64,000 bases of DNA from Schmidtea polychroa (lineage: Eukaryota). The stretch covers positions 25,360,001-25,424,000 of the forward strand of contig CM097885.1 in NCBI GenBank assembly GCA_044892525.1, read 5' to 3'. Shown piece by piece: positions 25,110-61,472 of the stretch (position 1 is the stretch's first letter; each line of letters starts with the position of its first letter). The notes under the pieces are model-generated. The model saw only the letters and a program-made list of their open reading frames with translations. It did not search any database and was not told the origin of the DNA. The translations under genes and the position numbers were made by a program.

Positions 25110-26127
25110 TGTAGTAAGCCGTTACACGGCCTTGACAATATCTATATACCTATTATACTATATTATATTATATTATATTATATTATATTATATATATAAA
25201 TGCGCGGTCACCAACGAACAAGGACCAATCAGAACACAATTACAGTCAATCAAAATTCGTGCGATCAGCTAATACTTCTACTTATCAAATAGGCTCTATT
25301 AATCAATCTCAGACGAGTAAAGCAAATTCGATGCCATGTTATCATTATCAAGATAAACTGTATTCGGCTCTCAATAGTTTTAGTGTTGGCTCTCATAGAC
25401 CAACACCCTCATCCATTACAATTCGCGAAATACGGAACAAATCATAACAATAATATGAACCCGAATAGATCTTTTTATCAAACCACCACACGTCTTTACA
25501 AATTCTGATCAATGTGATAATGCAAAATAGGATCAGAACGGCAGAGGATATACATTTCCTCAAATATTGTATGCGAATGACAATGGTCAAATTGGTTCAT
25601 GGACAAATCGGCAGGCTGTAAAATCTTTAGAAATAATCGGACTATTTGAAATTATTATTTTTAGTTAACATTTTGTAAATGAGAAATGGCTGTTGAATAT
25701 GTTTAACTGGTCTGATTATATTTACATTTTTTATGTAGTTTCTATTATATATTTTTGTTTTACTTATATATGAAAACTTTGTAATTCAAATTAAAAATTT
25801 TGGAATTTAAATAAAAACTGACATTAACTCTTTATGATTTATTTTATAAGTTTTCAATTTTATCAGCCAATTTGTAGAAAAATGCGACCATTATATACAT
25901 ATAAGGAATTAATTAATTGGAAGCCAGTTAATACTAGCAACAAACGTATATTTGATTACCAGAAACCAATATTCCAAGAAATGAATGGAATGAAAGTTGT
26001 CGAAAATCATCATTCGCAACGCAATAAAGTTCTCTTATGTCATGATATGAAAGGCGGTTATTTAGACGATGCTCTTACTGAAAATTCTATTGCCAAATTA
26101 CCAGATCGGATTGCCCCAACCACGACA
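25110..26127 (+). repeat. 5' LTR
   Basis: Starts TGTAGTAAGCC, ends CACGACA; matches 46548-47553 with about ten differences by eye. Confidence 0.95.
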
Positions 26128-27110: not shown

Positions 27111-28802
27111 TTGGCTGAGATGATTGCCGTTGAAAATCGTAAAAAAATGACTCCGATCAATAATTATATACCAAATAACAAATTGCTAACGAGTGATGTC
27201 TTATACACAGCCCCACAACGCATCATGCTTCGACCAAATCCAAATGAATTCTTAATGCAACAGAATAATGATTTTTTCACATTAAACTCTCGTGCACCGG
27301 GACAGCCATTTATTCACAATAATAAACCGTCTCCCAGCGAATCGATACTCAATCAAGCAATGCCCGTGTCAGCACCGCCAGGTACCTTAGATCGATTACC
27401 TCTAAATTATATTATAATATTATTATTAAATTATACTATATTATTATTGATTTATATTATTATTGATATCATATATAAAATCATAATAAATTATTTAAAT
27501 AAGCATCAGCCCACACGAGAGGGTAGCGCCGCACCGGGGCCCAAAAAGTTCCAAATATTAATAGAAAACCCTGGAACAAATAAGACACAAACCGTTTCAG
27601 TTGACACAGACACTACAATTAAAGGTCTTTCTAAAAATTACAGCATATTGACTAATCACAAATGCCGTTTTCTCTTGTCGTATAACGGCAACATCCTTTC
27701 TGACAGTCGTACCTTGGGCGACTATGGAGTGACACCATACAGCGTCATTCATTGTTTGTTGCCACTTTCTGGCGGTTCCTCCGATTCGGAGAATGACTCA
27801 GGCAGCAACCCCAAACAGGCAAAACATAAACGTAGGTCCAACAACCAGCGATCAACGTACTTATGTCAATATTTTTTGGATGAGAATAACTCTCCACTTA
27901 CTTGGCTGATAGCTACCGAACTAGCACTCGAGGAAATCGAGGTAACCAGTTCACGAGACAAATACTGTCGCATATTGCCGTTGATTCCGCCGACGATATT
28001 AAGTAAACTTTCGTCCGTGATCCTTCGTACTTCGCCTACTAGCGTAAAAAACCCATATGAAGAATTGCGTACGGCAATCCTCGATATTTTTAAGGAACCT
28101 ACAGCTGCCGTCTTCACTAAATACTTTAAGACGCAAACTTTGGGCAGCAGAAAACCGTCACAGTTCTTGCAACACGCTATGGCGGAACTAACGCAAATAC
28201 ATCCGGAGGCTGCGGCGGATCAAAAACTCTTGAGGCAATTTTTTCTGTCCGCTTTACCGCCACACGCACAACAAATTTTAGCGCTTTCGTCAACAGCAGA
28301 CGTGGTAGAGCTAGCAAAGATGGCCGACAAGATTAACGAAGTCGTGCCACTTGGTCCGCAACCAACTTGCAGTGTGCAGTTAAGTAGCAGCACTAACCCC
28401 GAAATTTTACCTTCTTCTTCTTCTTCTTTGAAACCTTCGACCGAAGAAGCCTTACTTTGCGCTATTACAGGCCTCACTAAACGCATCAGCGAGCTTGAGA
28501 ATAGCATGTCCACCAGGCGGACAAATGACGACAGACAATATGCCCAAAAATCACACTTTGTGCAAAATACTCGTCAACGTTCACCTTCCCCTGCAACCAG
28601 GAACCTGTGCCGTTTCCATTTTAAGTTTCGTAACAAGGCACGGTTCTGCCATCTAGGTTGCAATTGGCGAGATAAAGCACCATCCTGTCAGATACTTGAC
28701 AAGTGCATATACCACGACAGGTTTGGAGATAAAGCCTTAAAATGCTTCGAAGGCTGCTCCAATTACACAAAACCTAAAGCAAGCAATCAAAAAAACTTAT
28801 AA
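27111..28802 (+). CDS. gag: Ubiquitin-like domain + Gag polyprotein
   Basis: UBL segment FQILIEN..LSYNGNILSDSRTLGDYGV..IHCLLPLSGG; Gag core PLTWL..NPYEELRTAIL..LGSRKPSQFL; two Cys/His knuckles (CRFH..C..C, CIYH..C..C). True start uncertain. Confidence 0.85.
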   Translation: MAEMIAVENRKKMTPINNYIPNNKLLTSDVLYTAPQRIMLRPNPNEFLMQQNNDFFTLNSRAPGQPFIHNNKPSPSESILNQAMPVSAPPGTLDRLPLNYIIILLLNYTILLLIYIIIDIIYKIIINYLNKHQPTREGSAAPGPKKFQILIENPGTNKTQTVSVDTDTTIKGLSKNYSILTNHKCRFLLSYNGNILSDSRTLGDYGVTPYSVIHCLLPLSGGSSDSENDSGSNPKQAKHKRRSNNQRSTYLCQYFLDENNSPLTWLIATELALEEIEVTSSRDKYCRILPLIPPTILSKLSSVILRTSPTSVKNPYEELRTAILDIFKEPTAAVFTKYFKTQTLGSRKPSQFLQHAMAELTQIHPEAAADQKLLRQFFLSALPPHAQQILALSSTADVVELAKMADKINEVVPLGPQPTCSVQLSSSTNPEILPSSSSSLKPSTEEALLCAITGLTKRISELENSMSTRRTNDDRQYAQKSHFVQNTRQRSPSPATRNLCRFHFKFRNKARFCHLGCNWRDKAPSCQILDKCIYHDRFGDKALKCFEGCSNYTKPKASNQKNL

Positions 28803-28834: not shown

Positions 28835-30701
28835 AAAATTTCATCAAAATCAGATTTATTTTTAATAGAAGCAGAGTCAAACGTTTTTAATATATTGTCG
28901 TCTCCTTCCAACAGACTAAAATTCCTTGTCGACACTGGCTCCAGCTTGTCGATCTTACCTAAAGAGTACCTTCCAGACATCAACACTGTCGATATTTCTT
29001 TGAAGGCCGCAAACGGTAGTGTTGTTGAGACGTTAGGTTCAAAGACAATTGCTTTCTCGTTGCCATTTCTGTCCGACCAATTATTTGAGTAGAAATTTTA
29101 TATAGCAGAGGTTATTATCCCCATATTAGGATCTGATTTTTTAAGCGCTAACGAACTACTCGTCGATTGCCGTGGACGCACGTTAAGGATAAATAACCAA
29201 TTAAACTGCAGCACTATTCCCTCAAACATCTTTGAAGATCCACAACGGATAGGAACGGACGATATAAATACTACTCCGTCGAAAACGGTTATAACAATCG
29301 AACACCCAAAAATAGCCGTAGATATTATTAATAGGTGTTTTAACACGCCAATAACTGCAATAAGCGACGTTTCGAAGCCGCTTTACTGCCACACGATCGA
29401 CACAACTTCATCTTTACCAGTTAGATGCAAAATTAGACCACTGTCGAATGAAAAACTCGAATTTGTACGTTCCGAGTTCACTAACCTCTTACATGAGGGT
29501 ACCATTGCACCATTGCACCTGGTCCCAAAAAAAGATGGCACTTTCCGTCCGTGTGGCGACTATCGAAACCTTAATGCTATTACGGTACATGATTCCTATA
29601 GCATGCCGCTTGTTAGTGATATCCTTCACCGTCTTTCAAAGGCAAAGATTTTCTCCACAATCGACCTCGTGAAGGCGTACCATCAGATACCCGTGCGAGA
29701 GTCTGACATAGAAAAAACAGCCGTAATAACTCCGATCGGACTTTTCGAGTACGTGCATATGCCATTTGGCCTTCGTAATTCTGCACAGACCTTTCAAAGG
29801 TATATTGATCAAGTCTTAATGGACCTGCCTTTCGCAGTTCCTTACATAGACGACATTTTAATCGGATCACCTGATTTAGAGACGCATATAACCCATCTGA
29901 CAAGAACTTTAACAGCACTTCGGCAATACAACCTTAAGGTAAACGTTGATAAGTGTACCTTCTTCCAACACGAGACTCGTTTTCTGGGACATTTAATTTC
30001 CGGAGATGGAATCCGACCTCCTCCGGATAGACTAGATACCATAGCCAAATTCCCACTTCCAAAAACAGTTTCACAACTGAGAAGTTTTTTGGGAACGATA
30101 AACTATTGTCATCGTTTTATTCCAGGGGTTTCTGACATTTTGTCACCTCCTTCAGGTCTTGTTTCAAAACCAAAAAAGTCTTTAGTGTCATGGAGCGATA
30201 CCACACTCAGTGCATTTGAAAACGCTAAGTCGGCACTTTCGAAAATTCAAACACTCCATTTTCCCAATGCTGATTTACCCTGGAGTCTGACCACTGATGC
30301 ATCAAACGTTGCTATTGGTGCAGTATTACACCAATTACATAATGACCTTTCTGAACCCTTAGAGTTTTTCTCAAAGAAACTTTCTTCCGCACAACGGAAA
30401 TATTCGGCTTTCGACCGAGAACGCTTAGGCATATATCTTTCAATCAAACATTTCAAGCACTTGCTTGAAGGTCGTCCTTTTGTCATCTACACTGACTACA
30501 AACCGCTAACTTATCTTTTTGGAATGAAAGACCCATCTCCACGACAACAGAGGCAAATCAGTTATATTTCAGAATTTTCTTGCGAAATACGCCACATTGC
30601 CGGCAAAGAAAACGTTATTGCAGACTGTCTTTCCCGCAGTACCAACGCTATATTGCACGATCAGATATTTCCAGTACAGTGCCTCCGCGACAATCCACCT
30701 T
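28802..30701 (+). pseudogene. pol: Gypsy pol, 5' part: aspartic protease, reverse transcriptase, RNase H
   Basis: Motifs FLVDTGS, RPCGDYR, MPFGLRNS, YIDD, LTTDASN and VIADCLSR; in-frame stop at 29090-92; cut at 30701 by element C. Confidence 0.95.
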
Positions 30702-32762
30702 AGTAGGTAGTTAGTGGCTTACGGCAGCAATAGGGGGGGGGGGGGTAAAAAATGTTGCAAACTTTTGATTGCATAACTTTTTCCGTAGACATTTTTTGAT
30801 TACATAATTGTTGCCGTAATGCCCAATGTTTTCTGGGATTTTAAATACAAAATTTTTTTTTTTTTTTTTTTTTTTTCAATAAACAAGCCAAGGATAAATA
30901 TTATTTGGGTGGGTCTCCTTGGTCCTGAGAATTTCAATAGAAAAAGGTAGTCTCCAATAAAAAAGCATGGATTTTTCACACTATAGTGAGAGAGTCTCCA
31001 TAGTCCTAGGATTTTCAATACAAAAAGACGGTTTACACTAAAAAAGTATGGTAATTCAAGGTCTCAGGTTATTTTCAATACAAAAAGGTGGTCTACACTA
31101 AAAAACATGGTAATTTTTTTAAAATAAAGCAAATTATGGGTCTAAAAATTGGATTACAGTAAATTATGGACCTAAAAATTAAATTAAAGTAAATTATGGT
31201 CCAAATTTTTGAATTACATTAAATATTGGGTCTAAAAATTGAATTACAGTAAACAATGGTCAATAATTTTAATTTAAAGTTAAATAAGTAAATTAAAGGC
31301 TAAATTATGAAATTAAAGGAAACAATGGTTCAAATTTTAAATTAAAGCTAAATGAGTAAATTAAAGTAATAATTTTTAAATAAGTAATGTAATAAGTAAA
31401 TTAAGGTTCAAATTAGTAAATTAAGATCCAAAAAAAAAAATTAAATTAAAGTAATCAATGGGTTCAAATGAGTTAATTAAGGTTCTAAAAAAAAATTAAA
31501 TTAAATTAATCAACAGGTTCAAATAAGTTAATTAAGGTTCTAAAAAAAAATTAAATTAAAGTAATCAATGGGTTCAAATAAGTTAATTAAGGTCTAAAAT
31601 TTAAAATTAAAGCAATCAATGAGTTCAAATAAGTAAATTAAGGTCCAAATATTTAAATTAAAGTAATCAATGGGCTCAAATAACTAAATTAAGGTTCTAA
31701 AAAATAAATTAAAGTTAATTAAGGTTCAAAATTTAACATTAAGTAATCAATGGTAAAATAAAACTTTAAATTAAAGTTAAATAAGTAAATTTAAGTAATG
31801 TAATAAGTAAAAAAAGTTAAAGTTAGATTTTAAAATTTATTTACAAAAGTTGGAATAATAGTTGGTGATTGAGAATTGAAAATTTTAAATGAAAATTTTT
31901 AACGTATATTTTTTAAGATAATTTTTAATAGACATTTTTATGAAATATTTTTCAATGTTAATTTCAGATGAAAATTTATATGAAATATTTTTCAATGTTA
32001 ATTTTAGATGAAAATTTTAATGAAATAATTATTTTTTAAGTTAATTTTTATGAATTATTTTTCAATGTTAATTTTAGATGGAAAGTTTTATGTATTATTT
32101 TTCAATAGTAATTAAAGTTGCAAATCATTGTCAATTAATCATTCACTACATGAAATTATTGGTTAAATATGAAAATAAGGGCTATATTTGGTTGTAAATT
32201 ATGGTAAAAAAATTTAAATAAAGTAATACAAGGATAAATAGGTAAATTAATGTTTTATTTTTAAATTATAGGTTAAATACTTTAAATTAAAATTTATAAA
32301 CAAAAGTTGGAATAACCAACCGCTTCTGAGACATAAAAATTTAAAATAAAATTTTTAAGAAATAATTTTTTAAAGTCAAATTTTAATATAAACTTTTATG
32401 GAATAATTTTTTTAAGTTAATTTTTATTGAAAATATTTATGAAATATTTTTTTTAAGTTAAATTTGAATAGAAATTTTTATGGAATAATTTTTGAAGCTA
32501 ATTTTAAATAGAAATTTTAATGAATTAATAATTGTCAAAGACAAATTTAAATGGAAATTTTAATGAAATAATTTTCAAAGGCAAATTTAGATGCAAATTT
32601 CAATGATAATAAAAATTAATAATAAAAATAATAATAAAAAATAATAAAAATATTAATAATAATTATAATAATAAAAAATAATGAAAATCATAATAAAAAA
32701 TAAAATTAAAAATAATAATAAAAATAATAATAATATTGATAAAAATAATAATAATTATAATC

Positions 32763-32867
<105 letters not shown>

Positions 32868-33295
32868 CAATCGGATACCAACAACTATCAGGTACAACTA
32901 GATACCAAGTACATACAACCAACTACTAAGTACCTACAACTATGTACTAACAACCAACTAAGTATTCTTTATTGTATTTTATCAAATGATTTTTAAATTA
33001 ATTTTTTATCTGTCTTCAAAAATATGTTTAATTACAATCAGTAGAAAAAATCTTTTCAAAATGTCTAAATTTAACAAAAATGAATAATTGTCAACTCATC
33101 ACTACTTGGAATTCAAAATAATTTAAATTACAATGAAATACTAATGAATTCTAATTTACAAAACATTCTTCTTTTAATTGATAACTACTGACTTATTATT
33201 GCAAAGTAAAAATCACATTCAATAACTACTTATTGTTGATCAGTTTTATTATATATATACTGAGTTTATCCGACAGGATATTTTGACCCCCTAAG

Positions 33296-33365
33296 GGTAC
33301 AGGTCGTAAGGGTACTGGTCGTAAGGGTATTAGTCGTAAAGGTACTAGTCGTAGGGGTATTGGTA
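33296..33365. repeat. 15-bp tandem repeat (GGGTACTGGTCGTAA-like), mirrored at about 43000-43070
   Basis: Four to five degenerate units read directly. Confidence 0.8.
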
Positions 33366-35230
33366 ACACTCAACCACCACCTACCAAGTACTAACAACCA
33401 ACATCAACCAGCTAACAACTAAATACCAAGTACATACAACCAACATCAACCTGGTACTAAGTATTATCAACCTACAACTATATAACAATCAGTAAACAAT
33501 ACTGTACCAACTACCAAATACAAGATACCAACAACTTAGTACCAACAACCAGTAACTTACGAACATGTACTAACAACCAAGTAAAAACAATCAAGTAATA
33601 ACAAATATATCTTTAAAAGAAAATCCTCTTCACTTGCAATATTGGTAACACTCAATCCCCACCTACTCATTAATTAGCTACCATGTACTAACCACTAGGT
33701 TTCAAACAACTAAATACTAAACACTTACAACCATGTACTAACAACCACCATCAAAACCCATCGAGAAATTAACAAATATATACAACTATATGACAACAAT
33801 CAGTAAACAACACTGTACCAACTACTAAATACAAGATACCAAGTACCAACAATCAACTAACAACACATAAAAATAATAGCAATTAAATACAAAATATTCT
33901 TCATCACATGCAATATATTCTTGTCATCATCTACAACTAAACTCTATCAATCAGATACCAAATATTAACAACCAGATACTTACAACCAACAACTATGTAA
34001 TAAAAAATTGATCTTTAAAAGAAAATACTCTTCACTTGAAAAATTGGATGAAAAATTAATAAAAAAAATGCAATTCATTAATTAACTGATTACCAGTACT
34101 TGTATGATTTTCCAATAACTAGATAAAAATTAAATAAATCATTGTAAAAATTTAAATTATTCAAAACATAATAAATAACAAAATGTAATGGACGAAAGAA
34201 CTTTAAATTCTAGTCATTAATCATCCAGTAAATAAAAAAAATACTGATCATTTAAGTTAATCAACTAAGATAATAAAGATAATAAGATCTAGTAGATAAT
34301 TTATTTTGATTGAATAAATTAACTGAAATAAATTAATTCAGTATGAATTCATTACCATTATCAAAGTCAACAATCTACAATAAAAATAATTATCATTAAA
34401 TTCCAAAAGAGACTAGATAACTAATGATGACATCTAATAAACCAGTAAATTCATTTAAATGTCAATAATTGGTATATCCAAGTAAATTTTCTACTAAAAT
34501 CATCTAGAAAGCATCAAATTTCCATGAAATATCAATGTCTTTAAAGATAAGTATTTTATCGATAAATACCCTTAAAAGGCTATATATTTCCCTCAGACTA
34601 AAAGGATTGCTTAAAATCCCGTTTAAATGACTATAATTATATCTTTAATTCCTATTATCACTAATATTTCCCTATAAAACATGTAAAATCATTAACTCTA
34701 AACAATTTATAAAGTCTAATGACAAAAAACAGTTATAATTAAATTTTTGTTCTAAAAATAAATCACTGTAATCGAAATTTAAAATAAATATTGCTTGAAA
34801 TTTGACTGTACAATATAACTGAGTAGTTGCATAGAAAGATTCAATTTATCCATATTTCTTCAAATGATCATTTTTACCAATATCCAACCGATTTAATTAC
34901 TAATTAAAATCACCCGATAGATTTCTCCCAATAAAGATCAATTTTCTTTAGTCGACGTTTTAAATCAATATTTCCAACTTTTGTCGTTGTCCGTCTAAAT
35001 AAAGATAAAAATAATTTAAAGTTGAAGTCAATCCCAATTATCTGTAAAGATTTCATTGTCAAAACCAAGTAAATCGATCATTATCCCTACTTAATAAAAC
35101 AATGTTCTAAATTAATTTACTGTGCATTAATCACAATCTAATAAAACGATATAATTATTATTGATACATAACTGACTAATTACCATTTCCCTTAAAACAT
35201 TGATATTTTACCAACATCACCCTTAAAAAA

Positions 35231-35660
35231 TCATATATTCCCATCTTAACCCATCTCACATTAAATCTAACCGACTATATCTCCCTTACAATGATATATT
35301 CCCACCTTATCTGATCTCTCATTAAAATCAATCGACTATATCCCCCTTACAATGATATATTCCCATCTTAACCCATCCCTCATTAAATTTAGCCGACTAT
35401 ATCCCCTCAAAAGATCATATTCTCTCATTAAAGTCAATCGACTATATCTCCCTTACAATGATATATTCCCATTTTAACCCATCCCTCATTAAATTTAACC
35501 GACTACATCCCCTCAAAAGATCATATTTTCCCATCTTAACCGATCTCTCATTAAATCCCACCAACTATATCCCCCTTAAAAGATCATATATTCCCACCTT
35601 ATCCGATCTCTCATTAAATCTCACCGACAATATCCCAGCTTAATCGATCTCTCACCAAAT
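35231..35660. repeat. ~61-bp C-rich tandem repeat, mirrored at about 40385-40815
   Basis: Units start ATATATTCCCA at 35233, 35294, 35355 and onward. Confidence 0.85.
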
Positions 35661-37876
35661 ATTTCGACCCCTTTAAACATCTATCCGACTATATCCATTA
35701 ATTCTACCCACTTGAATCCTCCTTTAATTCAATCAATCCTCTTAAAATTCTTAGAGAATTCTTCAAAAATATGAATTTTTATTAAATGTTATCGACATCC
35801 AAAATACATCTATGAAATAATTTAGTATCTAAATTCGCGTAGTAAAAGATCAAAATTCACTAAAATTTTCTACAAATATTTACCATCAAATACTGGAGAT
35901 GATATATATTAATTGACCATAATTCTTCAACGATTCAACCAATCATTTTCAAGCAATAATAACAAACTAAATCATAAATTTCAAGTAAATTTAAAATATC
36001 TATCCGAGATAAAGTTAACTGGTTTCTTAGCTTATGTTTTTAAAGATCATCAATGTGTAAATATTCTTAGAAAATTATTGAAAAAAATTATTTAGTCAAA
36101 TGCATTACAAAGTCATCTAAAATTAAACCAATTACATAATTATTAACCTAACAGTCATTAAAAAAAATTAATTTTTATTTAAAATTTAACAAATTATCAA
36201 GAAATTCAATTAAAATCATCATTAAAGCTTTAAATTTTTTAATAAATCAACATGAAATTCTTAGAAAATAATTGAAAAAAAAAATATTACAAAGTCATAT
36301 CCTATCACGTGATTATTAACCTGACTGTCATTAAAAATAATTTTTATTTAAAAAAAAAACCAATCAATTAAAATGCATCCAATTATCAAGAAATTAATTA
36401 AATTTATTTAGAACTAACTTAAAATTTTTAAATATTCATTCAATCCACATGATATTCACGAAAATGATAAAAATTCACAAAAACCATCAACTCTAAAAAA
36501 ATAATTACTAATGAATACCTTAAACACCAAAATTTATCTAAATAATCTTTCAAATTAATTCATTAAAATTGAAGACAACACGCTCTATTTTGTCATTACA
36601 TTCAATTAAAATTAAATAAATCAAGATAAGAACTTTGATAAAAAATATTATTCTAAAATGGTAAAAATTAACACTGTAGTGTTAAATGAAAAGGTAATTA
36701 TTCTTTAAATCTAATTAACTTAGTCATAATTTTCTTTAATTTAACCCTTTATTTACTTAATTTAGTCCTTGTTTACCGAATATAGAAGTTTAAAATATAG
36801 ACCATTGATTACTTTAATTTAAAAATGTATCCCTTAATTTACATAATTTCAATCTAAAATTATTTCAAAAAATTTTTTCTAAAATTGTCATTGAAAAATA
36901 TTTCATAAAAGTTTTCATTTAAAATTTTCATTGAAAAATATTTCATAAAAATTTTCATTAAAAATTATCTTAAAAATTATTCCATAAAAATTTCATTAAA
37001 AAATTTCAATTCTCAAACACCTTCTATTATTTTGTTAATAAATTTAAAATCTTACTTTAATTTGCTTATTACATTACTTATTTAAAAATTATTACTTTAA
37101 TTTACTTATTTAAAATATTTGACCATTGATTACTTAATTTAAAAATTTGGACCTTAATTTACTTTAATTTAATTTTTTAGAACCTTAATTTACTTTAATT
37201 TTAAATTTTGAACCTTAATTAACTTTAATTCAAATTTGGACCTTAATTTACTTTAATTGAAAATTTTAGACCATAATTTACTTAATTGAAATTTTAGACC
37301 TTAATTTGCTTATTTATCTTTAATTTACTTAAGTTTAAAAATATATACCATAATTTACTTAATTGAAATTTTAGACTTTATTTTAGAACTCAATTGAAAA
37401 TTTTAGACCTTAATTTCATGTAAAATTTTAGACCATAATTTACTTATTTGAAAATTTTAGACCTTAAATTGCTTAATTGAAAATTTTAGACCTTAATTTG
37501 CTTATTTATCTTTAATTTACTTTAATTTAAAATTTTAGACCATAATATACTTAATTGAAAATTTTAGACCATAATTTCATGTAAAATTTTAGACCATAAT
37601 TTACTTATTTGAAAATTTTAGACCTTAATTTACTTAATTGGAAATTTTAGACCTTAATTTGCTTATTTATCTTTAATTTACTTAAGTTTAAAAATATATA
37701 CCATAATTTACTTTAATTTAAAATTTTAGACCTTAATTTACTTAATTGAAAATTTTAGACCATAATTTACTTAATTGAAAATTTTAGACCTTAATTTACT
37801 TAATTGAAAATTTTAGACCATAATTTTAATGTAAAATTGTCATTGAAAAAATTTTCATTTCTCAGGCGCTGTTTAT

Positions 37877-38168
37877 AGTAGGTAGATAGTAGCCCACTGC
37901 AGCAATGACCCCCCCCGGGGGGAGGGGGGGTTCTGCTGCAACTTTTTTTTTGCTGCAACTTTTGATTGCGCAATTGTTGCAACTAGTTTTTTTTTTGTTG
38001 TATTTTTTTTTTGTATTATTACGCAATTGTATTATTTTTTTTTTCTAGAATTTTCAATACAAAAAAAAAACAAGTTGCAACAATTGCGCAATCAAATGTT
38101 GCAGCAAAAAAAAAAGATGCAGCATAAAAAAAAGGCTTGCATTTGCAGCGGGCTCCTAACTACCTACT
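37877..38168. mobile_element. 292-bp mini-element with inward-facing AGTAGGTAG termini at the axis of palindrome C
   Basis: Left end AGTAGGTAGATAGTAGCCC; right end (reverse strand) AGTAGGTAGTTAGGAGCCC; both carry TTTGATTGCGCAATTGTTGCAAC, as in the 53890 terminus family. Confidence 0.85.
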
Positions 38169-41100
38169 ATAAACAGCGCCTGAGAAATGAAAATTTTTTC
38201 AATGACAATTTTACATTAAAATTATGGTCTAAAATTTTCAATTAAGTAAATTAAGGTCTAAAATTTTCAATTAAGTAAATTATGGTCTAAAATTTTCAAT
38301 TAAGTAAATTAAGGTCTAAAATTTTAAATTAAAGTAAATTATGGTATATATTTTTAAACTTAAGTAAATTAAAGATAAATAAGCAAATTAAGGTCTAAAA
38401 TTTCCAATTAAGTAAATTAAGGTCTAAAATTTTCAAATAAGTAAATTATGGTCTAAAATTTTACATGAAATTATGGTCTAAAATTTTCAATTAAGTATAT
38501 TATGGTCTAAAATTTTAAATTAAAGTAAATTAAAGATAAATAAGCAAATTAAGGTCTAAAATTTTCAATTAAGCAATTTAAGGTCTAAAATTTTCAAATA
38601 AGTAAATTATGGTCTAAAATTTTACATGAAATTAAGGTCTAAAATTTTCAATTGAGTTCTAAAATAAAGTCTAAAATTTCAATTAAGTAAATTATGGTAT
38701 ATATTTTTAAACTTAAGTAAATTAAAGATAAATAAGCAAATTAAGGTCTAAAATTTCAATTAAGTAAATTATGGTCTAAAATTTTCAATTAAAGTAAATT
38801 AAGGTCCAAATTTGAATTAAAGTTAATTAAGGTTCAAAATTTAAAATTAAAGTAAATTAAGGTTCTAAAAAATTAAATTAAAGTAAATTAAGGTCCAAAT
38901 TTTTAAATTAAGTAATCAATGGTCAAATATTTTAAATAAGTAAATTAAAGTAATAATTTTTAAATAAGTAATGTAATAAGCAAATTAAAGTAAGATTTTA
39001 AATTTATTAACAAAATAATAGAAGGTGTTTGAGAATTGAAATTTTTTAATGAAATTTTTATGGAATAATTTTTAAGATAATTTTTAATGAAAATTTTTAT
39101 GAAATATTTTTCAATGAAAATTTTAAATGAAAACTTTTATAAAATATTTTTCAATGACAATTTTAGAAAAAATTTTTTGAAATAATTTTAGATTGAAATT
39201 ATGTAAATTAAGGGATACATTTTTAAATTAAAGTAATCAATGGTCTATATTTTAAACTTCTATATTCGGTAAACAAGGACTAAATTAAGTAAATAAAGGG
39301 TTAAATTAAAGAAAATTATGACTAAGTTAATTAGATTTAAAGAATAATTACCTTTTCATTTAACACTACAGTGTTAATTTTTACCATTTTAGAATAATAT
39401 TTTTTATCAAAGTTCTTATCTTGATTTATTTAATTTTAATTGAATGTAATGACAAAATAGAGCGTGTTGTCTTCAATTTTAATGAATTAATTTGAAAGAT
39501 TATTTAGATAAATTTTGGTGTTTAAGGTATTCATTAGTAATTATTTTTTTAGAGTTGATGGTTTTTGTGAATTTTTATCATTTTCGTGAATATCATGTGG
39601 ATTGAATGAATATTTAAAAATTTTAAGTTAGTTCTAAATAAATTTAATTAATTTCTTGATAATTGGATGCATTTTAATTGATTGGTTTTTTTTTTAAATA
39701 AAAATTATTTTTAATGACAGTCAGGTTAATAATCACGTGATAGGATATGACTTTGTAATATTTTTTTTTTCAATTATTTTCTAAGAATTTCATGTTGATT
39801 TATTAAAAAATTTAAAGCTTTAATGATGATTTTAATTGAATTTCTTGATAATTTGTTAAATTTTAAATAAAAATTAATTTTTTTTAATGACTGTTAGGTT
39901 AATAATTATGTAATTGGTTTAATTTTAGATGACTTTGTAATGCATTTGACTAAATAATTTTTTTCAATAATTTTCTAAGAATATTTACACATTGATGATC
40001 TTTAAAAACATAAGCTAAGAAACCAGTTAACTTTATCTCGGATAGATATTTTAAATTTACTTGAAATTTATGATTTAGTTTGTTATTATTGCTTGAAAAT
40101 GATTGGTTGAATCGTTGAAGAATTATGGTCAATTAATATATATCATCTCCAGTATTTGATGGTAAATATTTGTAGAAAATTTTAGTGAATTTTGATCTTT
40201 TACTACGCGAATTTAGATACTAAATTATTTCATAGATGTATTTTGGATGTCGATAACATTTAATAAAAATTCATATTTTTGAAGAATTCTCTAAGAATTT
40301 TAAGAGGATTGATTGAATTAAAGGAGGATTCAAGTGGGTAGAATTAATGGATATAGTCGGATAGATGTTTAAAGGGGTAGAAATATTTGGTGAGAGATCG
40401 ATTAAGCTGGGATATTGTCGGTGAGATTTAATGAGAGATCGGATAAGGTGGGAATATATGATCTTTTAAGGGGGATATAGTTGGTGGGATTTAATGAGAG
40501 ATCGGTTAAGATGGGAAAATATGATCTTTTGAGGGGATGTAGTCGGTTAAATTTAATGAGGGATGGGTTAAAATGGGAATATATCATTGTAAGGGAGATA
40601 TAGTCGATTGACTTTAATGAGAGAATATGATCTTTTGAGGGGATATAGTCGGCTAAATTTAATGAGGGATGGGTTAAGATGGGAATATATCATTGTAAGG
40701 GGGATATAGTCGATTGATTTTAATGAGAGATCAGATAAGGTGGGAATATATCATTGTAAGGGAGATATAGTCGGTTAGATTTAATGTGAGATGGGTTAAG
40801 ATGGGAATATATGATTTTTTAAGGGTGATGTTGGTAAAATATCAATGTTTTAAGGGAAATGGTAATTAGTCAGTTATGTATCAATAATAATTATATCGTT
40901 TTATTAGATTGTGATTAATGCACAGTAAATTAATTTAGAACATTGTTTTATTAAGTAGGGATAATGATCGATTTACTTGGTTTTGACAATGAAATCTTTA
41001 CAGATAATTGGGATTGACTTCAACTTTAAATTATTTTTATCTTTATTTAGACGGACAACGACAAAAGTTGGAAATATTGATTTAAAACGTCGACTAAAGA

Positions 41101-43498
41101 AAATTGATCTTTATTGGGAGAAATCTATCGGGTGATTTTAATTAGTAATTAAATCGGTTGGATATTGGTAAAAATGATCATTTGAAGAAATATGGATAAA
41201 TTGAATCTTTCTATGCAACTACTCAGTTATATTGTACAGTCAAATTTCAAGCAATATTTATTTTAAATTTCGATTACAGTGATTTATTTTTAGAACAAAA
41301 ATTTAATTATAACTGTTTTTTGTCATTAGACTTTATAAATTGTTTAGAGTTAATGATTTTACATGTTTTATAGGGAAATATTCGTGATAATAGGAATTAA
41401 AGATATAATTATAGTCATTTAAACGGGATTTTAAGCAATCCTTTTAGTCTGAGGGAAATATATAGCCTTTTAAGGGTATTTATCGATAAAATACTTATCT
41501 TTAAAGACATTGATATTTCATGGAAATTTGATGCTTTCTAGATGATTTTAGTAGAAAATTTACTTGGATATACCAATTATTGACATTTAAATGAATTTAC
41601 TGGTTTATTAGATGTCATCATTAGTTATCTAGTCTCTTTTGGAATTTAATGATAATTATTTTTATTGTAGATTGTTGACTTTGATAATGGTAATGAATTC
41701 ATACTGAATTTTGTGTATAATTTGAGGAATTAGTAAATAGATTTCAATATACGTGTATTACTTTTAAAAAATAATTAAAATTAATTTATTTCAATTAATT
41801 TATTCAATCTAAATAAATTATCTACTAGATCTTATTATCTTTATTATCTTAGTTGATTAACTTGAATGATTTTAGAAAATTTACTTGGATATACTTATTA
41901 TTGACATTTAAATGAATTTACTGGTTTATTAGATGTTATCATTAGTTATCTAGTCTCTTTTGGAATTTAATGATAATTATTTTTATTGTAGATTGTTGAC
42001 TTTGATAATGGTAATGAATTCATACTGAATTAATTTATTTCAGTTAATTTATTCAATCAAAATAAATTATCTACTAGATCTTATTATCTTTATTATCTTA
42101 GTTGATTAACTTAAATGATCAGTATTTTTTTTATTTACTGGATGATTAATGACTAGAATTTAAAGTTCTTTCGTCCATTACATTTTGTTATTTATTATGT
42201 TTTGAATAATTTAAATTTTTACAATGATTTATTTAATTTTTATCTAGTTATTGGAAAATCATACAAGTACTGGTAATCAGTTAATTAATGAATTGCATTT
42301 TTTTTATTAATTTTTCATCCAATTTTTCAAGTGAAGAGTATTTTCTTTTAAAGATCAATTTTTTATTACATAGTTGTTGGTTGTAAGTATCTGGTTGTTA
42401 ATATTTGGTATCTGATTGATAGAGTTTAGTTGTAGATGATGACAAGAATATATTGCATGTGATGAAGAATATTTTGTATTTAATTGCTATTATTTTTATG
42501 TGTTGTTAGTTGATTGTTGGTACTTGGTATCTTGTATTTAGTAGTTGGTACAGTGTTGTTTACTGATTGTTGTCATATAGTTGTATATATTTGTTAATTT
42601 CTCGATGGGTTTTGATGGTGGTTGTTAGTACATGGTTGTAAGTGTTTAGTATTTAGTTGTTTGAAACCTAGTGGTTAGTACATGGTAGCTAATTAATGAG
42701 TAGGTGGGGATTGAGTGTTACCAATATTGCAAGTGAAGAGGATTTTCTTTTAAAGATATATTTGTTATTACTTGATTGTTTTTACTTGGTTGTTAGTACA
42801 TGTTCGTAAGTTACTGGTTGTTGGTACTAAGTTGTTGGTATCTTGTATTTGGTAGTTGGTACAGTATTGTTTACTGATTGTTATATAGTTGTAGGTTGAT
42901 AATACTTAGTACCAGGTTGATGTTGGTTGTATGTACTTGGTATTTAGTTGTTAGCTGGTTGATGTTGGTTGTTAGTACTTGGTAGGTGGTGGTTGAGTGT
43001 TACCAATACCCCTACGACTAGTACCTTTACGACTAATACCCTTACGACCAGTACCCTTACGACCTGTACCCTTAGGGGGTCAAAATATCCTGTCGGATAA
43101 ACTCAGTATGTATATAATAAAACTGATCAACAATAAGTAGTTATTGAATGTGATTTTTACTTTGCAATAATAAGTCAGTAGTTATCAATTAAAAGAAGAA
43201 TGTTTTGTAAATTAGAATTCATTAGTATTTCATTGTAATTTAAATTATTTTGAATTCCAAGTAGTGATGAGTTGACAATTATTCATTTTTGTTAAATTTA
43301 GACATTTTGAAAAGATTTTTTCTACTGATTGTAATTAAACATATTTTTGAAGACAGATAAAAAATTAATTTAAAAATCATTTGATAAAATACAATAAAGA
43401 ATACTTAGTTGGTTGTTAGTACATAGTTGTAGGTACTTAGTAGTTGGTTGTATGTACTTGGTATCTAGTTGTACCTGATAGTTGTTGGTATCCGATTG

Positions 43499-43585
<87 letters not shown>

Positions 43586-44927
43586 GATTATAATTATTAT
43601 TATTTTTATCAATATTATTATTATTTTTATTATTATTAAAAATTATCTTAAAAAATATACGTTAAAAATTTTCATTTAAAATTTTCAATTCTCAATCACC
43701 AACTATTATTCCAACTTTTGTAAATAAATTTTAAAATCTAACTTTAACTTTTTTTACTTATTACATTACTTAAATTTACTTATTTAACTTTAATTTAAAG
43801 TTTTATTTTACCATTGATTACTTAATGTTAAATTTTGAACCTTAATTAACTTTAATTTATTTTTTAGAACCTTAATTTAGTTATTTGAGCCCATTGATTA
43901 CTTTAATTTAAATATTTGGACCTTAATTTACTTATTTGAACTCATTGATTGCTTTAATTTTAAATTTTAGACCTTAATTAACTTATTTGAACCCGTTGAT
44001 TAATTTAAATTAATTTTTTTTAGAACCTTAATTAACTCATTTGAACCCATTGATTACTTTAATTTAATTTTTTTTTAGAACCTTAATTAACTTATTTGAA
44101 CCTGTTGATTAATTTAATTTAATTTTTTTTTAGAACCTTAATTAACTCATTTGAACCCATTGATTACTTTAATTTAATTTTTTTTTTTGGATCTTAATTT
44201 ACTAATTTGAATCTTAATTTACTTATTACATTACTTATTTAAAAATTATTACTTTAATTTACTCATTTAGCTTTAATTTAAAATTTGAACCATTGTTTCC
44301 TTTAATTTCATAATTTAGCCTTTAATTTACTTATTTAACTTTAAATTAAAATTATTGACCATTGTTTACTGTAATTCAATTTTTAGACCCAATATTTAAT
44401 GTAATTCAAAAATTTGGACCATAATTTACTTTAATTTAATTTTTAGGTCCATAATTTACTGTAATCCAATTTTTAGACCCATAATTTGCTTTATTTTAAA
44501 AAAATTACCATGTTTTTTAGTGTAGACCACCTTTTTGTATTGAAAATAACCTGAGACCTTGAATTACCATACTTTTTTAGTGTAAACCGTCTTTTTGTAT
44601 TGAAAATCCTAGGACTATGGAGACTCTCTCACTATAGTGTGAAAAATCCATGCTTTTTTATTGGAGACTACCTTTTTCTATTGAAATTCTCAGGACCAAG
44701 GAGACCCACCCAAATAATATTTATCCTTGGCTTGTTTATTGAAAAAAAAAAAAAAAAAAAATTTTGTATTTAAAATCCCAGAAAACATTGGGCATTACGG
44801 CAACAATTATGTAATCAAAAAATGTCTACGGAAAAAGTTATGCAATCAAAAGTTTGCAACATTTTTTACCCCCCCCCCCCCCCCCCACCCTATTGCTGCC
44901 GTAAGCCACTAACTACTTACTCACCTT

Positions 44928-46378
44928 CGGCAAAAGATCTAGCTGCTTTTGGCGATAAGCTTGAAATCGTGGACGGAGTACACTTTGACTCGTCTTTATC
45001 AGGTGTTTTAAGACCGATTTTGCACGATTCCTTACGGAAATTAGCTTTCCACTCCATCCACGACTTACATCATCCAGGTTCGTCGGCTACCTTCAACCTA
45101 TTGCATTCACATGTGGTTTGGCCAGCAATGAGGCACGATATTAAATTGTGGGTGAGTCAGTGCATCGGTTGTCAACAACACAAGATCACTAGACACACTA
45201 AGCCACAGATGATTCACTATCCAACCGGAAATAGGTTCGAAATTCTTCACATCGACCTGGTCGGCCCCTTGCCTTCTGATCGCGGTTTTTCTTACTTATT
45301 AACCATGATTGACCGGAAAACGCGTTGGTTTGAAGTTATTCCTCTAAAAAACATTTCTGCTGAAATTGTAGCATATTCAATTTTGCAACATTGGATTTCT
45401 AGATACGGTGTTCCGAAATCAATAATCACAGACAGGGGATCTCAATTTGAATCCCAGTTATTTCAACAACTAACTGAAAAGCTCGGTATACAACACCTCC
45501 GTTCAACTGCTTACCATCCTCAGACAAACGGCATGATCGAAAGATTTCACCGTACTTTGAAGACTTCTCTTGGAATACTTTCATCGAGACTTAATTGGAC
45601 TAAAGCTTTACCCTTTGTCCTTCTTGGTTGGCGTAACACACCCTCCAGGACTACCGGAACTACACCGGCACAGTTACTTTTCGGTTCTTCAACATCGTTA
45701 CCTAACGAATTAGTTGATTTCGATAACGCTCCTACCTTTGAGGAATTAGATATGGCTAGAGATCATTTTCTCTCGATCGATAGCAACCCACAGTTTTCTT
45801 ATGCATCCTCATATACACCGTACGTCCCAAAGTCCTTCAAGGACGCTACTCACGTTTATCTCCGTAATATTACGGATTCAGGTCTAAAACCGAGATATTC
45901 GGGGCCTTACAAATTGATCGACATTAAGGATAACAATGCTCACATCGTTATTAACGGTGTTACCCAAAATATAAATTTGTGCCGACTTAAACCGGCTTTC
46001 ATGATTTCTGATGACGTGGACGAAGACAAACTTCACTCTGATTTAGAGAAAGTCTCAGTCGAACCCATTTCAACTACGTCGAACGAAAACCTTTCAGTAG
46101 AACCTGCCATGGACTCAAACGAAATCGCGCGTACCATGATCACAAACTACCAACGCGATGAAAATTTAGCTACAGAGAATACACATTCAGCAACAACAAA
46201 TCCACTAAATCTTCGCTCAATTGTTTCGAAACCCGACAAGCAGCGAACCGCGAAAAATGTGAAACATAGTGATAAGATTTGGGTGCGCCAAATTGGTGAA
46301 GACATTTCCAAACTTCCTAGACTTGCCAGAGTCTATTCCAATGAAAACTTGACACATCTGATGCTGAAATTCACTTAA
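44928..46378 (+). pseudogene. pol: Gypsy pol, 3' part: integrase
   Basis: HDLHHPG..CIGC zinc finger, HIDLVGP, ITDRGSQF, NGMIERFHRTLK and GPY motifs. Removing element C and one TSD restores the frame (GAC AAT CCA CCT TCG GCA AAA). Confidence 0.95.
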
Positions 46379-46547: not shown

Positions 46548-47553
46548 TGTAGTAAGCCGTTACACGGCCTTAACAATATCTATATACCTATTATACTATA
46601 TTATATTATATTATATTATATTATATTATATATATAAATGCGCGGTCACCAAAGAACAAGGACCAATCAGAACACAATTACAGTCAATCAAAATTCGTGC
46701 GATCAGCTAATACTTCTACTTATCAATCAGGCTCTATTAATCAATCTCAGACGAGTAAAGCAAATTCGATGCCATGTTATCATTATCAAGATAAACTGTA
46801 TTCGGCTCTCAATAGTTTTAGTGTTGGCTCTCATAGACCAACACCCTCATCCATTACAATTCGCGAAATACGGAACAAATCCTAACAATAATATGAACCC
46901 GAATAGATCTTTTTATCAAACCACCACACGTCTTTACAAATTCTGATCAATGTGATAATGCAAAAAAGGATCAGAACGGCAAAGGATATACATTTCCTCA
47001 AATATTGTATGCGAATGACAATGGTCAAATTGGTTCATGGACAAATCGGCAGGCTGTAAAATCTTTAGAAATAATCGGACTATATGAAATTATTATTTTT
47101 AGTTAACATTTTGTAAATGAGAAATGGCTGTTGAATATGTTTAACTGGTCTGATTATATTTACATTTTTTTATGTAGTTTCTATTATATATTTTTGTTTT
47201 ACTTATATATGAAAACTTTGTAATTCAAATTAAAAATTTTGGAATTTAAATAAAAACTGACATTAACTCTTTATGATTTATTTTATAAGTTTTCAATTTT
47301 ATCAGCCAATTTGTAGAAAAATGCGACCATTATATACATATAAGGAATTAATTAATTGGAAGCCAGTTAATACTAGCAACAAACGTATATTTGATTACCA
47401 GAAACCAATATTCCAAGAAATGAATGGAATGAAAGTTGTCGAAAATCATCATTCGCAACGCAATAAAGTTCTCTTATGTCATGATATGAAAGGCGGTTAT
47501 TTAGACGATGCTCTTACTGAAAATTCTATTGCCAAATTACCAGATCGGATTGC
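46548..47553 (+). repeat. 3' LTR (last ~14 bp missing)
   Basis: Matches the 5' LTR up to CAGATCGGATTGC, then TTTCGG filler, then polB resumes. Confidence 0.93.
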
Positions 47554-47559
47554 TTTCGG

Positions 47560-49214
47560 ATAGATTTCAAACGAAATTGTTGAAAGAAATCAGCCAAAAG
47601 AAAACAATCGAGTTTTAAGTATATCATCATGTAGTCTAATAAAGTTACGCAATTAGTTTCCACCCAAATCTCCTGAGATTTTTCATACTCAAGTTCAGTG
47701 ACACCTTCCCAGATCGGTGGTAATTCATAAGTAGTTTTGAGAATATCTAAAGATGTAGCGAAATTATAAGGAAAGATTCCTTTTTCAGATACTATAGTGC
47801 CAGTAAAAACAGAATTAGTTAAAGGTAAAGTATTCAATGTTTTGACTGCTTTAGCTAAAGAATCATTAACAAATTGATAAGAATCAATGAATCTTAAGCT
47901 AATTTTTCTTAAATGCGCAATCAAATCAATAAATTTTTCAGTTGTGATTGGGATACATCCTAAAGCCCAATTCTTGAATTTATTTAAACCATATTTAAGT
48001 ATATGGTGCATATCGTATCCTTTCAAGTTGTGAAATACGATAGGCAAAATTTTATTAATTTTCCTATTTATGTTGCATGTGCTACAAGCAGCACCCAAGT
48101 ATTTCCCAGTAAAATGATCGTGATCTCTAACAGGATCGACGATACATTTCATGCAAAGGTAACGAAGAAATGCACTATCAAATTGTTGTTGTTCGATATT
48201 AGTTAATTTCACCATAGGTTTCCTACCCATTTTATAATAAAAAGGAAGAACTTTATTTAATGCTATATCCTCTGTAGCACTTAAAAATCTCTCGACGCAA
48301 TCTAAACCTATGAACTGTTGATAAGATTAAGATCCGTCAAAGTTATTAACAAGTAAAAGACCAGCAGATATTGGCATGTGTCGTTGGAAGTGAATATTGT
48401 CAGAAGGTAAAATAGCCTCAAAATCGGCATAAACTACAAAAGGAGGAGTTACTGTTTTCGACCAGTCAGTAAACTGTAATAATTTATTTTGAGGAATGTG
48501 TAAAGCGTCGTTCCTAACTGATTTCTTTTACACAATACTTCATGTTTGTCTAGCACGTGTTTATATCTAAACCCGTTCAAACATAGCTGACACCAAAATG
48601 ATTGTATTCGTGTAGGATAACTAGTGTTGATATCACAATTCATTAACCTATTTAAGTTGTTTATAGAAATGTAATGGAAATTGTTTCCTTTATTTAATAA
48701 TAATAAATTAATTATAGTTCCATTTAAAACTTTGGAACGACGTATAATATCCAAATGCGGATGTTTAAAAACATAATTGTCGGTTAATTGTCTATTATTG
48801 TCATAAGTAAAAACATTAATTATTAAACCTGGATTTTTAGCTTCAAATTTTCTAATATCTTTTAGTTTCATTGGTAAATCTAATGAATCGTATACTAGGT
48901 CAGATAAATTATAACTTGATGTCCTATTTCTATATTGTCTAACAACCTCTTCATATTTTAAAATAGCTAAAATGTTATATAAAAAACACGAATCATCAGT
49001 GTTTTTTATATTGATTAAACACTTTTTATTTTTTAGATAAGTTGGGGTTTCAATAAAACTCCTACCCCTTAACCTACTTAACCTACTTATTTTAGTTATA
49101 GTGAAATGGATTTCTGTTATATTTTTTATAATCCAAATACTTCCTAACTCTGTAATACTAGTGATTTTTTCGTTTAATTCCCTAATACCTTGATTAAAAA
49201 ATGATGCAGTTAAC
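47560..49214 (-). pseudogene. polB: Protein-primed PolB, 5' part (element B)
   Basis: ORFs 47526-48230 (VRDHDHFTGKYLGAACSTCN, FHNLKGYD) and 48449-49216 are collinear with element E polB; frameshift and stop between them. Confidence 0.92.
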
Positions 49215-49650
49215 AAATTTACTTAGTGGAATAATGTAAAGTCAATTCAGTAGTTTAATAATTCTCGTATCTTATGCAAAAAAGGTTTTTGAAGTCAACC
49301 CTATTGGTTTTTCGTTTATTTTGAATCCCAAATCAATTCAGACTAAGGAATACCACATTAAATCGATATTTTGTGTGCAAGGTTTTAGTTATAAACAAGA
49401 ACTATTAACTTTATATGAATTGAAAATGTTATTATTAGTTTTAATATTAAAACCAATTTAAAAAATTCAACACTTGTATTAAAAGAATTTCAAAAAATCT
49501 CATCAATTTGTATAACCGAAATTAGAATCATCAAACTCTGCAAACTACTCAATAATATTTAAATTTCCATTATTTATTTTGAATTATTTTATAAATTAAA
49601 TAAAAATATTAATATGATTTTCCTTTTTATTAACAAAAATTAATATTATA

Positions 49651-51724: not shown

Positions 51725-52933
<1,209 letters not shown>

Positions 52934-55950: not shown

Positions 55951-55994
<44 letters not shown>

Positions 55995-56132
55995 TAATAT
56001 TAATAATATATCAACCAAATACTATACAACACATAAAAAATTAACTAAACACATAAAAATAACTAGACACATAACAAAACATAAAAATTTACCAAATAAC
56101 AAATGTAAAGATATAAAATTTATTCAATAAAA

Positions 56133-59027: not shown

Positions 59028-59158
59028 TGGATTATATATTAATTCAGATAAATTATAACTGGATGTCCTATTTCTAGCATAACTACTAACCTCATCATAT
59101 TTTAAAATAGCTAAAATGCTATATAAAAAACATGAATCATCGGTGTTTTTTATATTAA

Positions 59159-61345: not shown

Positions 61346-61472
61346 CACACAAAGCATCAAACTGAAATTGTAATTGCGCCATGTTGTAGAGAATTAAATT
61401 CTGCCTATACATTGTTACACTTAAATCTCGATCAGACATGTGAAAAGAGACATAAAAGAGAAAGAACAGTAG

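Follow-up and report, generated by a model that had tools for sequence, protein, structure and literature searches.

A miniature but complete Polinton-type element at the axis of a 14-kb palindromic element in Schmidtea polychroa, and a possible origin of such palindromes by fold-back copying

The 64,000-nucleotide stretch of Schmidtea polychroa DNA analysed here (the window; C1:25360001-25424000, C1 being contig CM097885.1 of assembly GCA_044892525.1) contains a palindromic element with Polinton-type ends, palindrome C, on whose axis lies a much smaller element. A second palindrome (E) and a larger inverted structure (B, with element D at its axis) are built in the same way. Positions refer to the window, and those beyond 64000 are extended coordinates counted into the adjoining sequence. 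The genome comprises 781 Mb with four large contigs. The window is AT-rich (GC 18-43% per 2-kb windows) and crowded with mobile elements of animal type, including a retrotransposon of the long terminal repeat (LTR) type with open reading frames (ORFs) for reverse transcriptase (RT)/RNase H and integrase, and ORFs for a family B DNA polymerase of the protein-primed type (PolB); an actin ORF is present as well. Nested insertions are common in this region.

Palindrome C occupies positions 30702-44921 (14.2 kb), has Polinton-type AG...CT ends and is flanked on both sides by a direct 6-bp target site duplication (TSD), CACCTT, whose copies were read directly at 30696-30701 and 44922-44927. The left arm (30702-37876, plus strand), which is non-coding and made up mainly of AT-rich tandem arrays, begins at the outer terminus AGTAGGTAGTTAGTGGCTTACGGCAGCAAT. 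The right arm (38169-44921, minus strand) differs from the left chiefly in tandem-repeat copy number and ends in GCCACTAACTACTTACT; the element terminates in the complement of its own start AGTAGGTAGTTAGTGGCTTACGGCAGCAAT. The inner arms, 34335-37901 and 38144-41710, are about 100% complementary over 3567 nt, and further arm blocks extend out to 30733 and 44881. The arms contain no ORF of 150 amino acids (aa) or more and thus no PolB. The terminus word AGTAGGTAGNTAGT, allowing up to two mismatches, was counted 11 times in the window where 0.70 would be expected, and none of 100 shuffles gave as many. Two of the 11 matches are the outer ends of C and two are the ends of a unit between its arms.

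This unit of 292 bp (37877-38168, plus strand), referred to below as the mini, has the ends AGTAGGTAG...CTACCTACT and reads from AGTAGGTAGATAGTAGCCC to GGGCTCCTAACTACCTACT. It is bordered by GTTTAT, the final six bases of the left arm (37871-37876, by direct reading), and by ATAAAC, the first six bases of the right arm (38169-38174), which is the reverse complement of GTTTAT. An initial annotation, based on the letters of the window, had placed a 292-bp unit with inward-facing ends at exactly this position and had recognised its flanks as inverse copies rather than a TSD, and both statements are correct. The ends of the mini are imperfect inverted copies of each other (74% self-complementary overall, with nine perfect terminal bases). 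As single-stranded DNA the mini was computed to fold end to end, with -97.9 kcal/mol, a z-score of -16.7 and the nine terminal bases paired.

Ends of the same type are frequent in the genome. The end type AGTAGGTAG-W-TAG-KR-GCCC-R-CTGCA with a preceding non-T base was found in at least 365 places of the genome, and many of these ends form plus/minus pairs 10-40 kb apart. Genome-wide counts, here and below, are lower bounds obtained by scoring the best candidates, the first 100 places being listed. Seven of the ten pairs tried from the first 30 loci had identical or 5-of-6 matching hexamers beside them, and all eight pairs that were fetched whole had identical or 5-of-6 TSDs; the terminal inverted repeats (TIRs) of these elements range from less than 250 bp to about 5 kb. 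Over its first ~100 nt the mini is 87-94% identical to the ends of such 10-40-kb TSD-flanked elements, which bears out the proposal of the initial annotation that the axis units are of element type. The public runs X1, X2 and X9 were examined as assembled contigs: 17, 14 and 3 contigs, respectively, matched inward from 37877 and were preceded by mutually unlike sequence, as is expected of a true element end. These results demonstrated that palindrome C has a complete miniature element of Polinton type, the unit at 37877-38168, exactly on its axis.

Palindrome C interrupts the pol region of the LTR retrotransposon, between the RT/RNase H ORF (29513-30703), whose stop codon is created by the C junction, and the integrase ORF (44822-46378), which is the sole rve ORF in the window. 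When C and one CACCTT are discounted, the frames of the two ORFs are in phase (by coordinate arithmetic, no sequence having been joined), and the insertion of C is therefore young. A further ORF of the retrotransposon (27111-28802) has a ubiquitin-family domain (E-value 5.5e-9) and a DUF7041 match, and its LTRs lie at about 25110-26026 and 46548-47465. The retrotransposon in turn lies in the PolB gene of element B, which encloses it, and divides that gene into two parts (23623-24730 and 47526-49216, minus strand); there are thus three levels of nesting.

Palindrome E extends from 54848 to 69097 and has outer ends of the same type as C and the TSD GAAATT, the left copy of which lies at 54842-54847 and the right copy just past 69097, beyond the window. 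As determined by comparison of the arms, its left arm (54848-61467, plus strand) starts with the outer terminus AGTAGGTAGTTAGTAGCTTACGGCAGCAAT, and its right arm (minus strand) starts at 62539 and continues past the end of the window at 64000 to 69097; the segments 54848-61550 and 62455-69097 have 98.7% identity across 6707 columns. An intact PolB ORF of 964 aa is present in each arm. The first (56133-59027, minus strand; Pfam DNA_pol_B_2, E-value 4.2e-31) and the second (64979-67873) are identical at 963 of 964 positions. Among the E arm ORFs of at least 70 aa PolB alone received a Pfam assignment, and no rve integrase was found; comparison of the PolB sequence with solved structures gave no matches. 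Weak Pfam matches to Endonuclease_7 were seen in the PolB ORF at 56133-59027 and in that at 47526-48230 (minus strand), with E-values of 0.002 and 0.007, and fall in a Cys/His-rich stretch preceding the polymerase domain.

On the axis of E lies a cassette of 1071 bp (61468-62538, plus strand; AGTAGAGTAGTATGATTGG...CCAATCATACTACTCTACT) which contains two inner units of 509 bp. The initial annotation had recognised a centre with AGTAGT ends here, and its boundary (61473) lies within five bases of the one determined by us. The flanks of the cassette, AAGAAC and GTTCTT, are again reverse complements, and its ends were computed to pair as a stem of about 75 nt. The copy number of the 509-bp unit (window 61576-62384) varies among members of the family, whose cassettes measure about 556-566, 1017-1079 and 1430-1590 bp according to the number of these units. 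One other element has an end that matches the cassette end over about 90 nt.

Both palindromes belong to families. A search with the 304-bp centre of C gave at least 40 matches over its full length at 90-100% identity (the best 40 of 2148 candidates), and the exact flank-mini-flank pattern was found in at least 37 places. Of the 30 C-family loci fetched, 28 had the identical GTTTAT/ATAAAC and arm, one had ATTTAT/ATAAAT, changed on both sides, and one was truncated on one side. Nine of 12 loci retrieved by a related query belonged to an older sister subfamily of C, whose flanks are CGCCGTTT/AAACGGCG or, changed on both sides, CGCCATTT/AAATGG. For E, the arm/cassette junction was found in at least 40 copies at 94-100% identity, and both junctions with AAGAAC/GTTCTT were present in 29 of 30 loci. 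The copies occupy different loci, with their own TSD at each where this was checked. This demonstrated that C and E move as palindromes, in at least 37-40 copies each, and that the axis and its flanks are common by descent; integration-competent palindromes had also been postulated by the initial annotation. As the axis is shared by descent within a family, the copies are not independent tests of its origin.

Near-perfect palindromes are a recognised class of artefact in long-read assemblies, and fold-back chimeric reads in assembly or library, or merely the decay of a palindrome centre, were therefore considered as a source of these structures. The multiplicity of the copies at different loci with TSDs of their own, the presence of copy-specific substitutions in both arms and the match between the axis ends and the ends of other element families all speak against this. 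In addition, further contigs from the public runs span the arm/mini junctions. Since the axis and its flanks recur at many loci and independent contigs bridge the junctions, an assembly artefact is excluded, and we assign a negligible probability to this explanation as a whole.

A third example was found in the structure that encloses C and E. Element B spans 22674-115727 (93 kb, TSD CACCAT); its left terminus and a TIR of about 700 bp (22674-23379, plus strand) were assigned from its outer ends and TSD. On the axis of this inverted structure lies the 38-kb element D (53890-91883), within which E is nested; the left end of D in the window (53890-54847, plus strand) has the terminus AGTAGGTAGTTAGGAGCGCC and a TIR of about 240 bp (95%). 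The 83 bases to the left of D (53807-53889) recur as an exact reverse complement directly to its right (91884-91966), and the hexamers flanking D, TTCTTT and AAAGAA, are inverse complements. An insertion of 19.9 kb (91967-111912; C1:25451967-25471912) interrupts B's right arm at a distance of 83 bases from D. Past this insertion the inverted match resumes, 51218-53809 corresponding to 114977-111913 with 95-97.5% identity. The inner arms of B contain an actin gene and its flank, that is, host-like sequence. The actin ORF is intronless, encodes 401 aa (Pfam Actin, E-value 8.5e-146) and lies at 51728-52933; it is doubled, with an inverted copy near 112776-113981.

Paralogous loci of the B/D site made it possible to see what lies there when D is missing. 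In six of seven paralogues no element was present and the flank (TTCTTT or just before it; CGTT in one) continued uninterrupted, and four of the seven read exactly from CAATATTCTTT into TAAGTTTTCTC through the site (TTCTTT followed by TAAGTTTTCTC). One paralogue is a plain inverted actin pair (C1:25.965-26.000 Mb) with no such element ends within 60 kb. Since the paralogues read through the site, the continuation of B beyond D has been lost, and the left flank stands in its place as an inverted copy. This layout is the one that the fold-back model of the initial annotation predicts.

Taken together, C, E and B/D are three nested cases in which the inner element is a complete unit with inverse-complement flanks, and their three axis elements are unrelated to one another. 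The axis units come from end-families other than those of the outer ends. The frequency of nested insertions in the region could suggest that a small element had simply integrated by the ordinary route into the centre of a pre-existing palindrome. Ordinary integration gives a direct 6-bp duplication, however, as seen in all eight pairs sampled, whereas the flanks of each of the three axis units are reverse complements without an additional hexamer, and none of the flank hexamers is itself palindromic. In B/D, moreover, the sequence expected beyond the site is absent. Because the axis flanks are inverse and not direct, insertion into a ready-made palindrome is ruled out in its simple form, and we regard it as very improbable.

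A different type of copy of the C family was found at C1:179939986-179946825. This half form consists of the mini, one 6.3-kb arm and the outer end, with GTTATA on both sides, and its arm is 88.9% identical over 6.3 kb to the arm of another copy. As the half form is bounded by a TSD and ends exactly at the outer terminus of the mini, the mini end can work as an element end. This accords with the earlier proposal that a molecule had been released at the far end of the inner element.

These observations led us to the following scheme. A smaller element would first have come to lie within a larger one, as is shown for B/D and assumed for C and E by analogy. A linear molecule or displaced strand may then have spanned the distance from the outer end to the far end of the inner element, and the half form shows that a unit of this extent exists. 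The 3' end of the strand would have paired, by intramolecular fold-back, with the other inverted end of the inner element, and its extension to the outer end by a polymerase, either PolB or a host enzyme, would have generated a palindrome with two perfect outer ends. The intermediate was presumably an extrachromosomal linear molecule or a displaced single strand, and an integrase supplied in trans may have inserted the palindrome; an integrase gene was found in neither C nor E. That the palindrome was made, and re-made during propagation, by pairing of the 3' end of a half-molecule with the other inverted end of the mini and extension along its own arm is the explanation we favour, with about an even chance of being correct. 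Fold-back copying of a whole arm had been suggested by the initial annotation. It fits C, E and B/D as well as the foldable axis units, and it gains support from the half form, the paralogues of B/D and the symmetric substitutions described below.

Inverted duplication on the chromosome was considered as a second route. Host fork template switching, of the origin-dependent inverted-repeat amplification (ODIRA) kind, at the short inverted ends of a nested element in the chromosome would give an axis of this type, and the outer Polinton ends could have mobilised the product later. Short inverted repeats are a known trigger of such events according to the available parts of two accounts (PMC10766183, PMC4689423), and the inverted duplication of B/D lies among host-like sequence, the actin gene and its flank. 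In C and E, however, the arms stop exactly at the outer element termini, as is expected if the template was a linear element and not a chromosome. Template switching would also have to recur at every locus to re-symmetrise the arms repeatedly over many transposed copies. We consider this route unlikely.

The sequences of the arms were compared in order to see how the two halves of a palindrome evolve. The C-family arms were aligned with MAFFT (fast settings). In the inner 1400 bases, the median mismatch between the two arms within a copy was 0.23% (29 copies) versus 1.97% between copies (260 of 1624 pairs sampled; Mann-Whitney p = 5e-9). There was no same-side signal in C, same-side pairs differing by 2.07% and opposite-side pairs by 1.62%. 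In a column test, a column was taken as informative when two or more copies had the same base in their two arms and two or more other copies shared a different base in theirs. In C (874 well-aligned columns, 26 copies, after exclusion of three copies with an arm divergence above 5%), 38 columns had both arms changed together in at least two copies, versus three shared arm differences and 42 private ones. In E the copies were too alike for a nearest-neighbour test of the arms to resolve, and the column test was taken instead (650 columns, 24 copies, two excluded): it gave 30 both-arm columns versus three shared arm differences and eight private ones. The flank variants of the mini (ATTTAT/ATAAAT and CGCCATTT/AAATGG) likewise change on both sides together and are further symmetric substitutions.

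A palindrome formed once and copied faithfully thereafter would carry its substitutions on one arm only, and the opposite is seen. As the shared substitutions sit in both arms, one arm has repeatedly been copied from the other. This may occur through templating of one arm by the other in each round of propagation, through mismatch correction in a folded form, or through fast conversion in place.

Several observations weigh against origin and renewal of the palindromes by fold-back. The initial annotation had predicted non-palindromic precursors with the cassette between direct TSDs, and free-standing cassettes with direct TSDs. Neither an empty site nor a direct-TSD precursor was found for C or E in exact-word searches, and for these two the step of nested insertion is assumed by analogy with B/D. 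Words consisting of the arm end of C or of E and a non-A base gave no match in these searches, which diverged relatives escape. A degenerate word for the arm end of C and the older subfamily gave one match, which was rejected as an empty site since it is another mini junction. Elements B and D were also rejected as precursors of E, the homology stopping at positions 59314 and 60564 of E, respectively. A free-standing copy was found neither of the C mini nor of the E cassette; for the latter, the sole match without an arm flank is the other element mentioned above, which shares only the ~90-nt end. Mini-sized units with a non-T flank were found in five places, and one of them is free-standing (C1:85443549-85443813). 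This unit of 265 bp has a perfect direct TSD, TAAATG, and is a relative of the C mini, not the same element. It is single-copy as a whole, other matches covering one half each; it may therefore have arisen by deletion in place and is weak evidence that minis move.

The variant copies raise further difficulties. Among the matches listed, one half form alone has a TSD, and the one-armed copies at C1:150.36 Mb and C1:169.74 Mb lack a matching one. The nearest relatives of the half form are palindromes, and it may thus derive from a palindrome. A rearranged C-family copy of 15.9 kb (C1:14588190-14604110, TSD TATTAT), in which the arm segment before the mini is direct and not inverted, fits no model tested. 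In 8 of the 37 flank-mini-flank places (e.g., C1:245547634-245547904) both mini ends are of one type, with symmetry extending 43-107 nt inward around an asymmetric core of 75-85 nt that occurs in either orientation. Such minis are absent from the predictions of a simple one-step model; they fit an arm-homogenising process working inward. Structure B has suffered erosion, the PolB segment being absent from its right arm and identity reaching only 85% in the outer 700 bp, versus 95-100% in the inner arms. Finally, gene conversion in place could produce the homogenisation of the arms, and intermolecular recombination or annealing within the inverted ends of the mini would give the same product as fold-back.

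The last point corresponds to a complete alternative, in which two molecules or inverted chromosomal copies were joined head to head by recombination, single-strand annealing or copy-choice within the ends of the axis unit, with later gene conversion between the arms. Its product would be identical in structure to that observed, the eight minis with same-type ends fit a crossover or conversion inside the mini, and arm homogenisation is the usual effect of conversion between inverted repeats. It needs, however, two half-molecules or adjacent inverted copies, and one integrated half form was found. It also still requires an end or a break at the mini and differs from intramolecular fold-back only in being intermolecular. 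In our judgement intermolecular joining is rather unlikely to be the source of the palindromes.

Long inverted repeats are frequent in this genome, and fold-back on an inner element is not the sole route to them, since none of three other long-TIR elements examined had a terminus at the inner TIR boundary. Elements of 12-17 kb with Polinton-type ends, perfect 6-bp TSDs and TIRs of 1 to 5 kb were also noted (e.g., C1:29291495-29308596 and C1:54390741-54406420); two that were examined are largely tandem repeats with no ORF of 150 aa or more.

Overall, the interpretation of the initial annotation is partly supported. The genome preserves structures that are difficult to produce unless a 3' end anneals to an inverted repeat and is extended. 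If the fold-back reading holds, it predicts that half-length hairpins and ends at internal termini should occur as replication intermediates, and it explains the origin of very long, even gene-bearing, inverted repeats in Polintons. Nested insertion could then turn a virus-like element into a successful new non-autonomous family, and annotators would be warned that perfect palindromes of 14 kb in assemblies can be real. A broader reading, which we put forward tentatively as possible, is that Polintons of this lineage also cycle through a half-length hairpin-primed form, with an internal element end serving as origin or end and the displaced half-strand folding onto the inner element to copy its own arm, and that the 14-kb palindromes are integrated dimer replicative forms. 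If true, replication intermediates of a Polinton would here be recorded in nature for the first time, and a hybrid of protein-primed and rolling-hairpin replication would be indicated.

The accepted scheme for Polintons, comprising excision, TIR pairing, copying by PolB and integration, is a model, and to our knowledge Polinton/Maverick replication has never been directly observed. In full-text searches, which left most subscription journals uncovered, no published account of whole-element palindromic Polintons or of an axis element was found. Vertebrate Mavericks are described, in the available part of the source, as having 6-bp TSDs, TIRs of 46-1447 bp and AGT-type 5'-AG...CT-3' end motifs (PMC8097293). 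The elements studied here resemble Polintons/Mavericks in the 6-bp TSDs of C (CACCTT), E (GAAATT), B (CACCAT) and the half form (GTTATA), in their AG...CT ends (AGTAGGTAG...CTACCTACT and AGTAGAGTAGT...ACTACTCTACT) and in the protein-primed family B polymerase that E carries in two intact copies of 964 aa. They differ in that the inverted repeat is the whole element, with arms of 6.6-7.2 kb that join at a small foreign element, and in that C has no genes and E has PolB alone, in two copies. Capsid, packaging ATPase and protease were not seen, C and E containing no long ORF besides PolB, although no sensitive search for split or short genes was made. As neither an integrase nor a capsid gene was found in them, both are regarded as non-autonomous derivatives.

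In the panhandle repair of adenovirus a displaced strand pairs its inverted repeats, and a recessed 3' end can be extended to copy the other end. Pairing and 3' extension are the very step proposed here. Adenovirus restores ends of about 100 bp in this way, whereas here an arm of 2.7-7 kb would have been copied to yield a new transposable palindrome. In parvovirus and poxvirus junctions two inverted genomes meet at a single unfolded imperfect terminal hairpin. The layout of arm, mini and arm is the same as that of the rolling-hairpin dimer junctions of parvoviruses and the concatemer junctions of poxviruses, as far as the accessible portions of two accounts present them (PMC3087758, PMC11575299). 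Those viruses, however, have hairpin ends and a nickase or resolvase, whereas the outer ends here are of protein-primed type with integrase-type TSDs. No ORF for a Rep/NS1 nickase was found in C or E, and their outer ends are ordinary TIR ends with TSDs.

A short inverted repeat near a DNA end is able to seed palindromes in Tetrahymena rDNA and in yeast and mammalian gene amplification. At the exact centre of the palindromes described here likewise lies a short imperfect inverted repeat with an asymmetric spacer which is able to pair, as snap-back requires. Giant palindromes centred on a short inverted repeat with a non-palindromic spacer also appear in the available text on ODIRA and related events (PMC10766183, PMC4689423). 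Those are events of the host chromosome, whereas here the repeat is the end pair of a mobile element and the product is mobile and multi-copy.

The Foldback elements of Drosophila have long inverted arms, largely of tandem repeats with little or no coding capacity, and in this they resemble C. Their target duplication is longer, 9 bp, whereas the TSD here is 6 bp, the ends are Polinton ends of AGTAGG type and a PolB-bearing sister family exists. Foldback is mentioned in the available part of an account that also treats Teratorn (PMC6431247), discussed below.

Butterfly Polintons have gene-bearing TIRs of about 2 kb around a unique core (10.1101/2025.02.07.637071). As far as the available text of that study goes, they share with E the position of genes inside the inverted repeats, giving two gene copies per insertion, and differ in that neither an axis element nor a mechanism is described. 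For endogenous virophages and Polinton-like viruses, terminal palindromes of 52 nt at the TIR tips were proposed as hairpin primers (10.64898/2026.07.28.741278). The likeness lies in the idea that fold-back at an element end may prime DNA synthesis. Those palindromes, however, occupy the outer tips and are associated with elements that lack protein-primed PolB, and the accessible portion of the source describes no whole-element palindromes. Teratorn, a piggyBac-herpesvirus fusion with internal TIRs (PMC6431247), differs from the present elements in enzyme, ends and scale. In the part of that account available, its internal ends at the boundary of a long inverted repeat are used for integration, as the half form suggests for the end of the mini.

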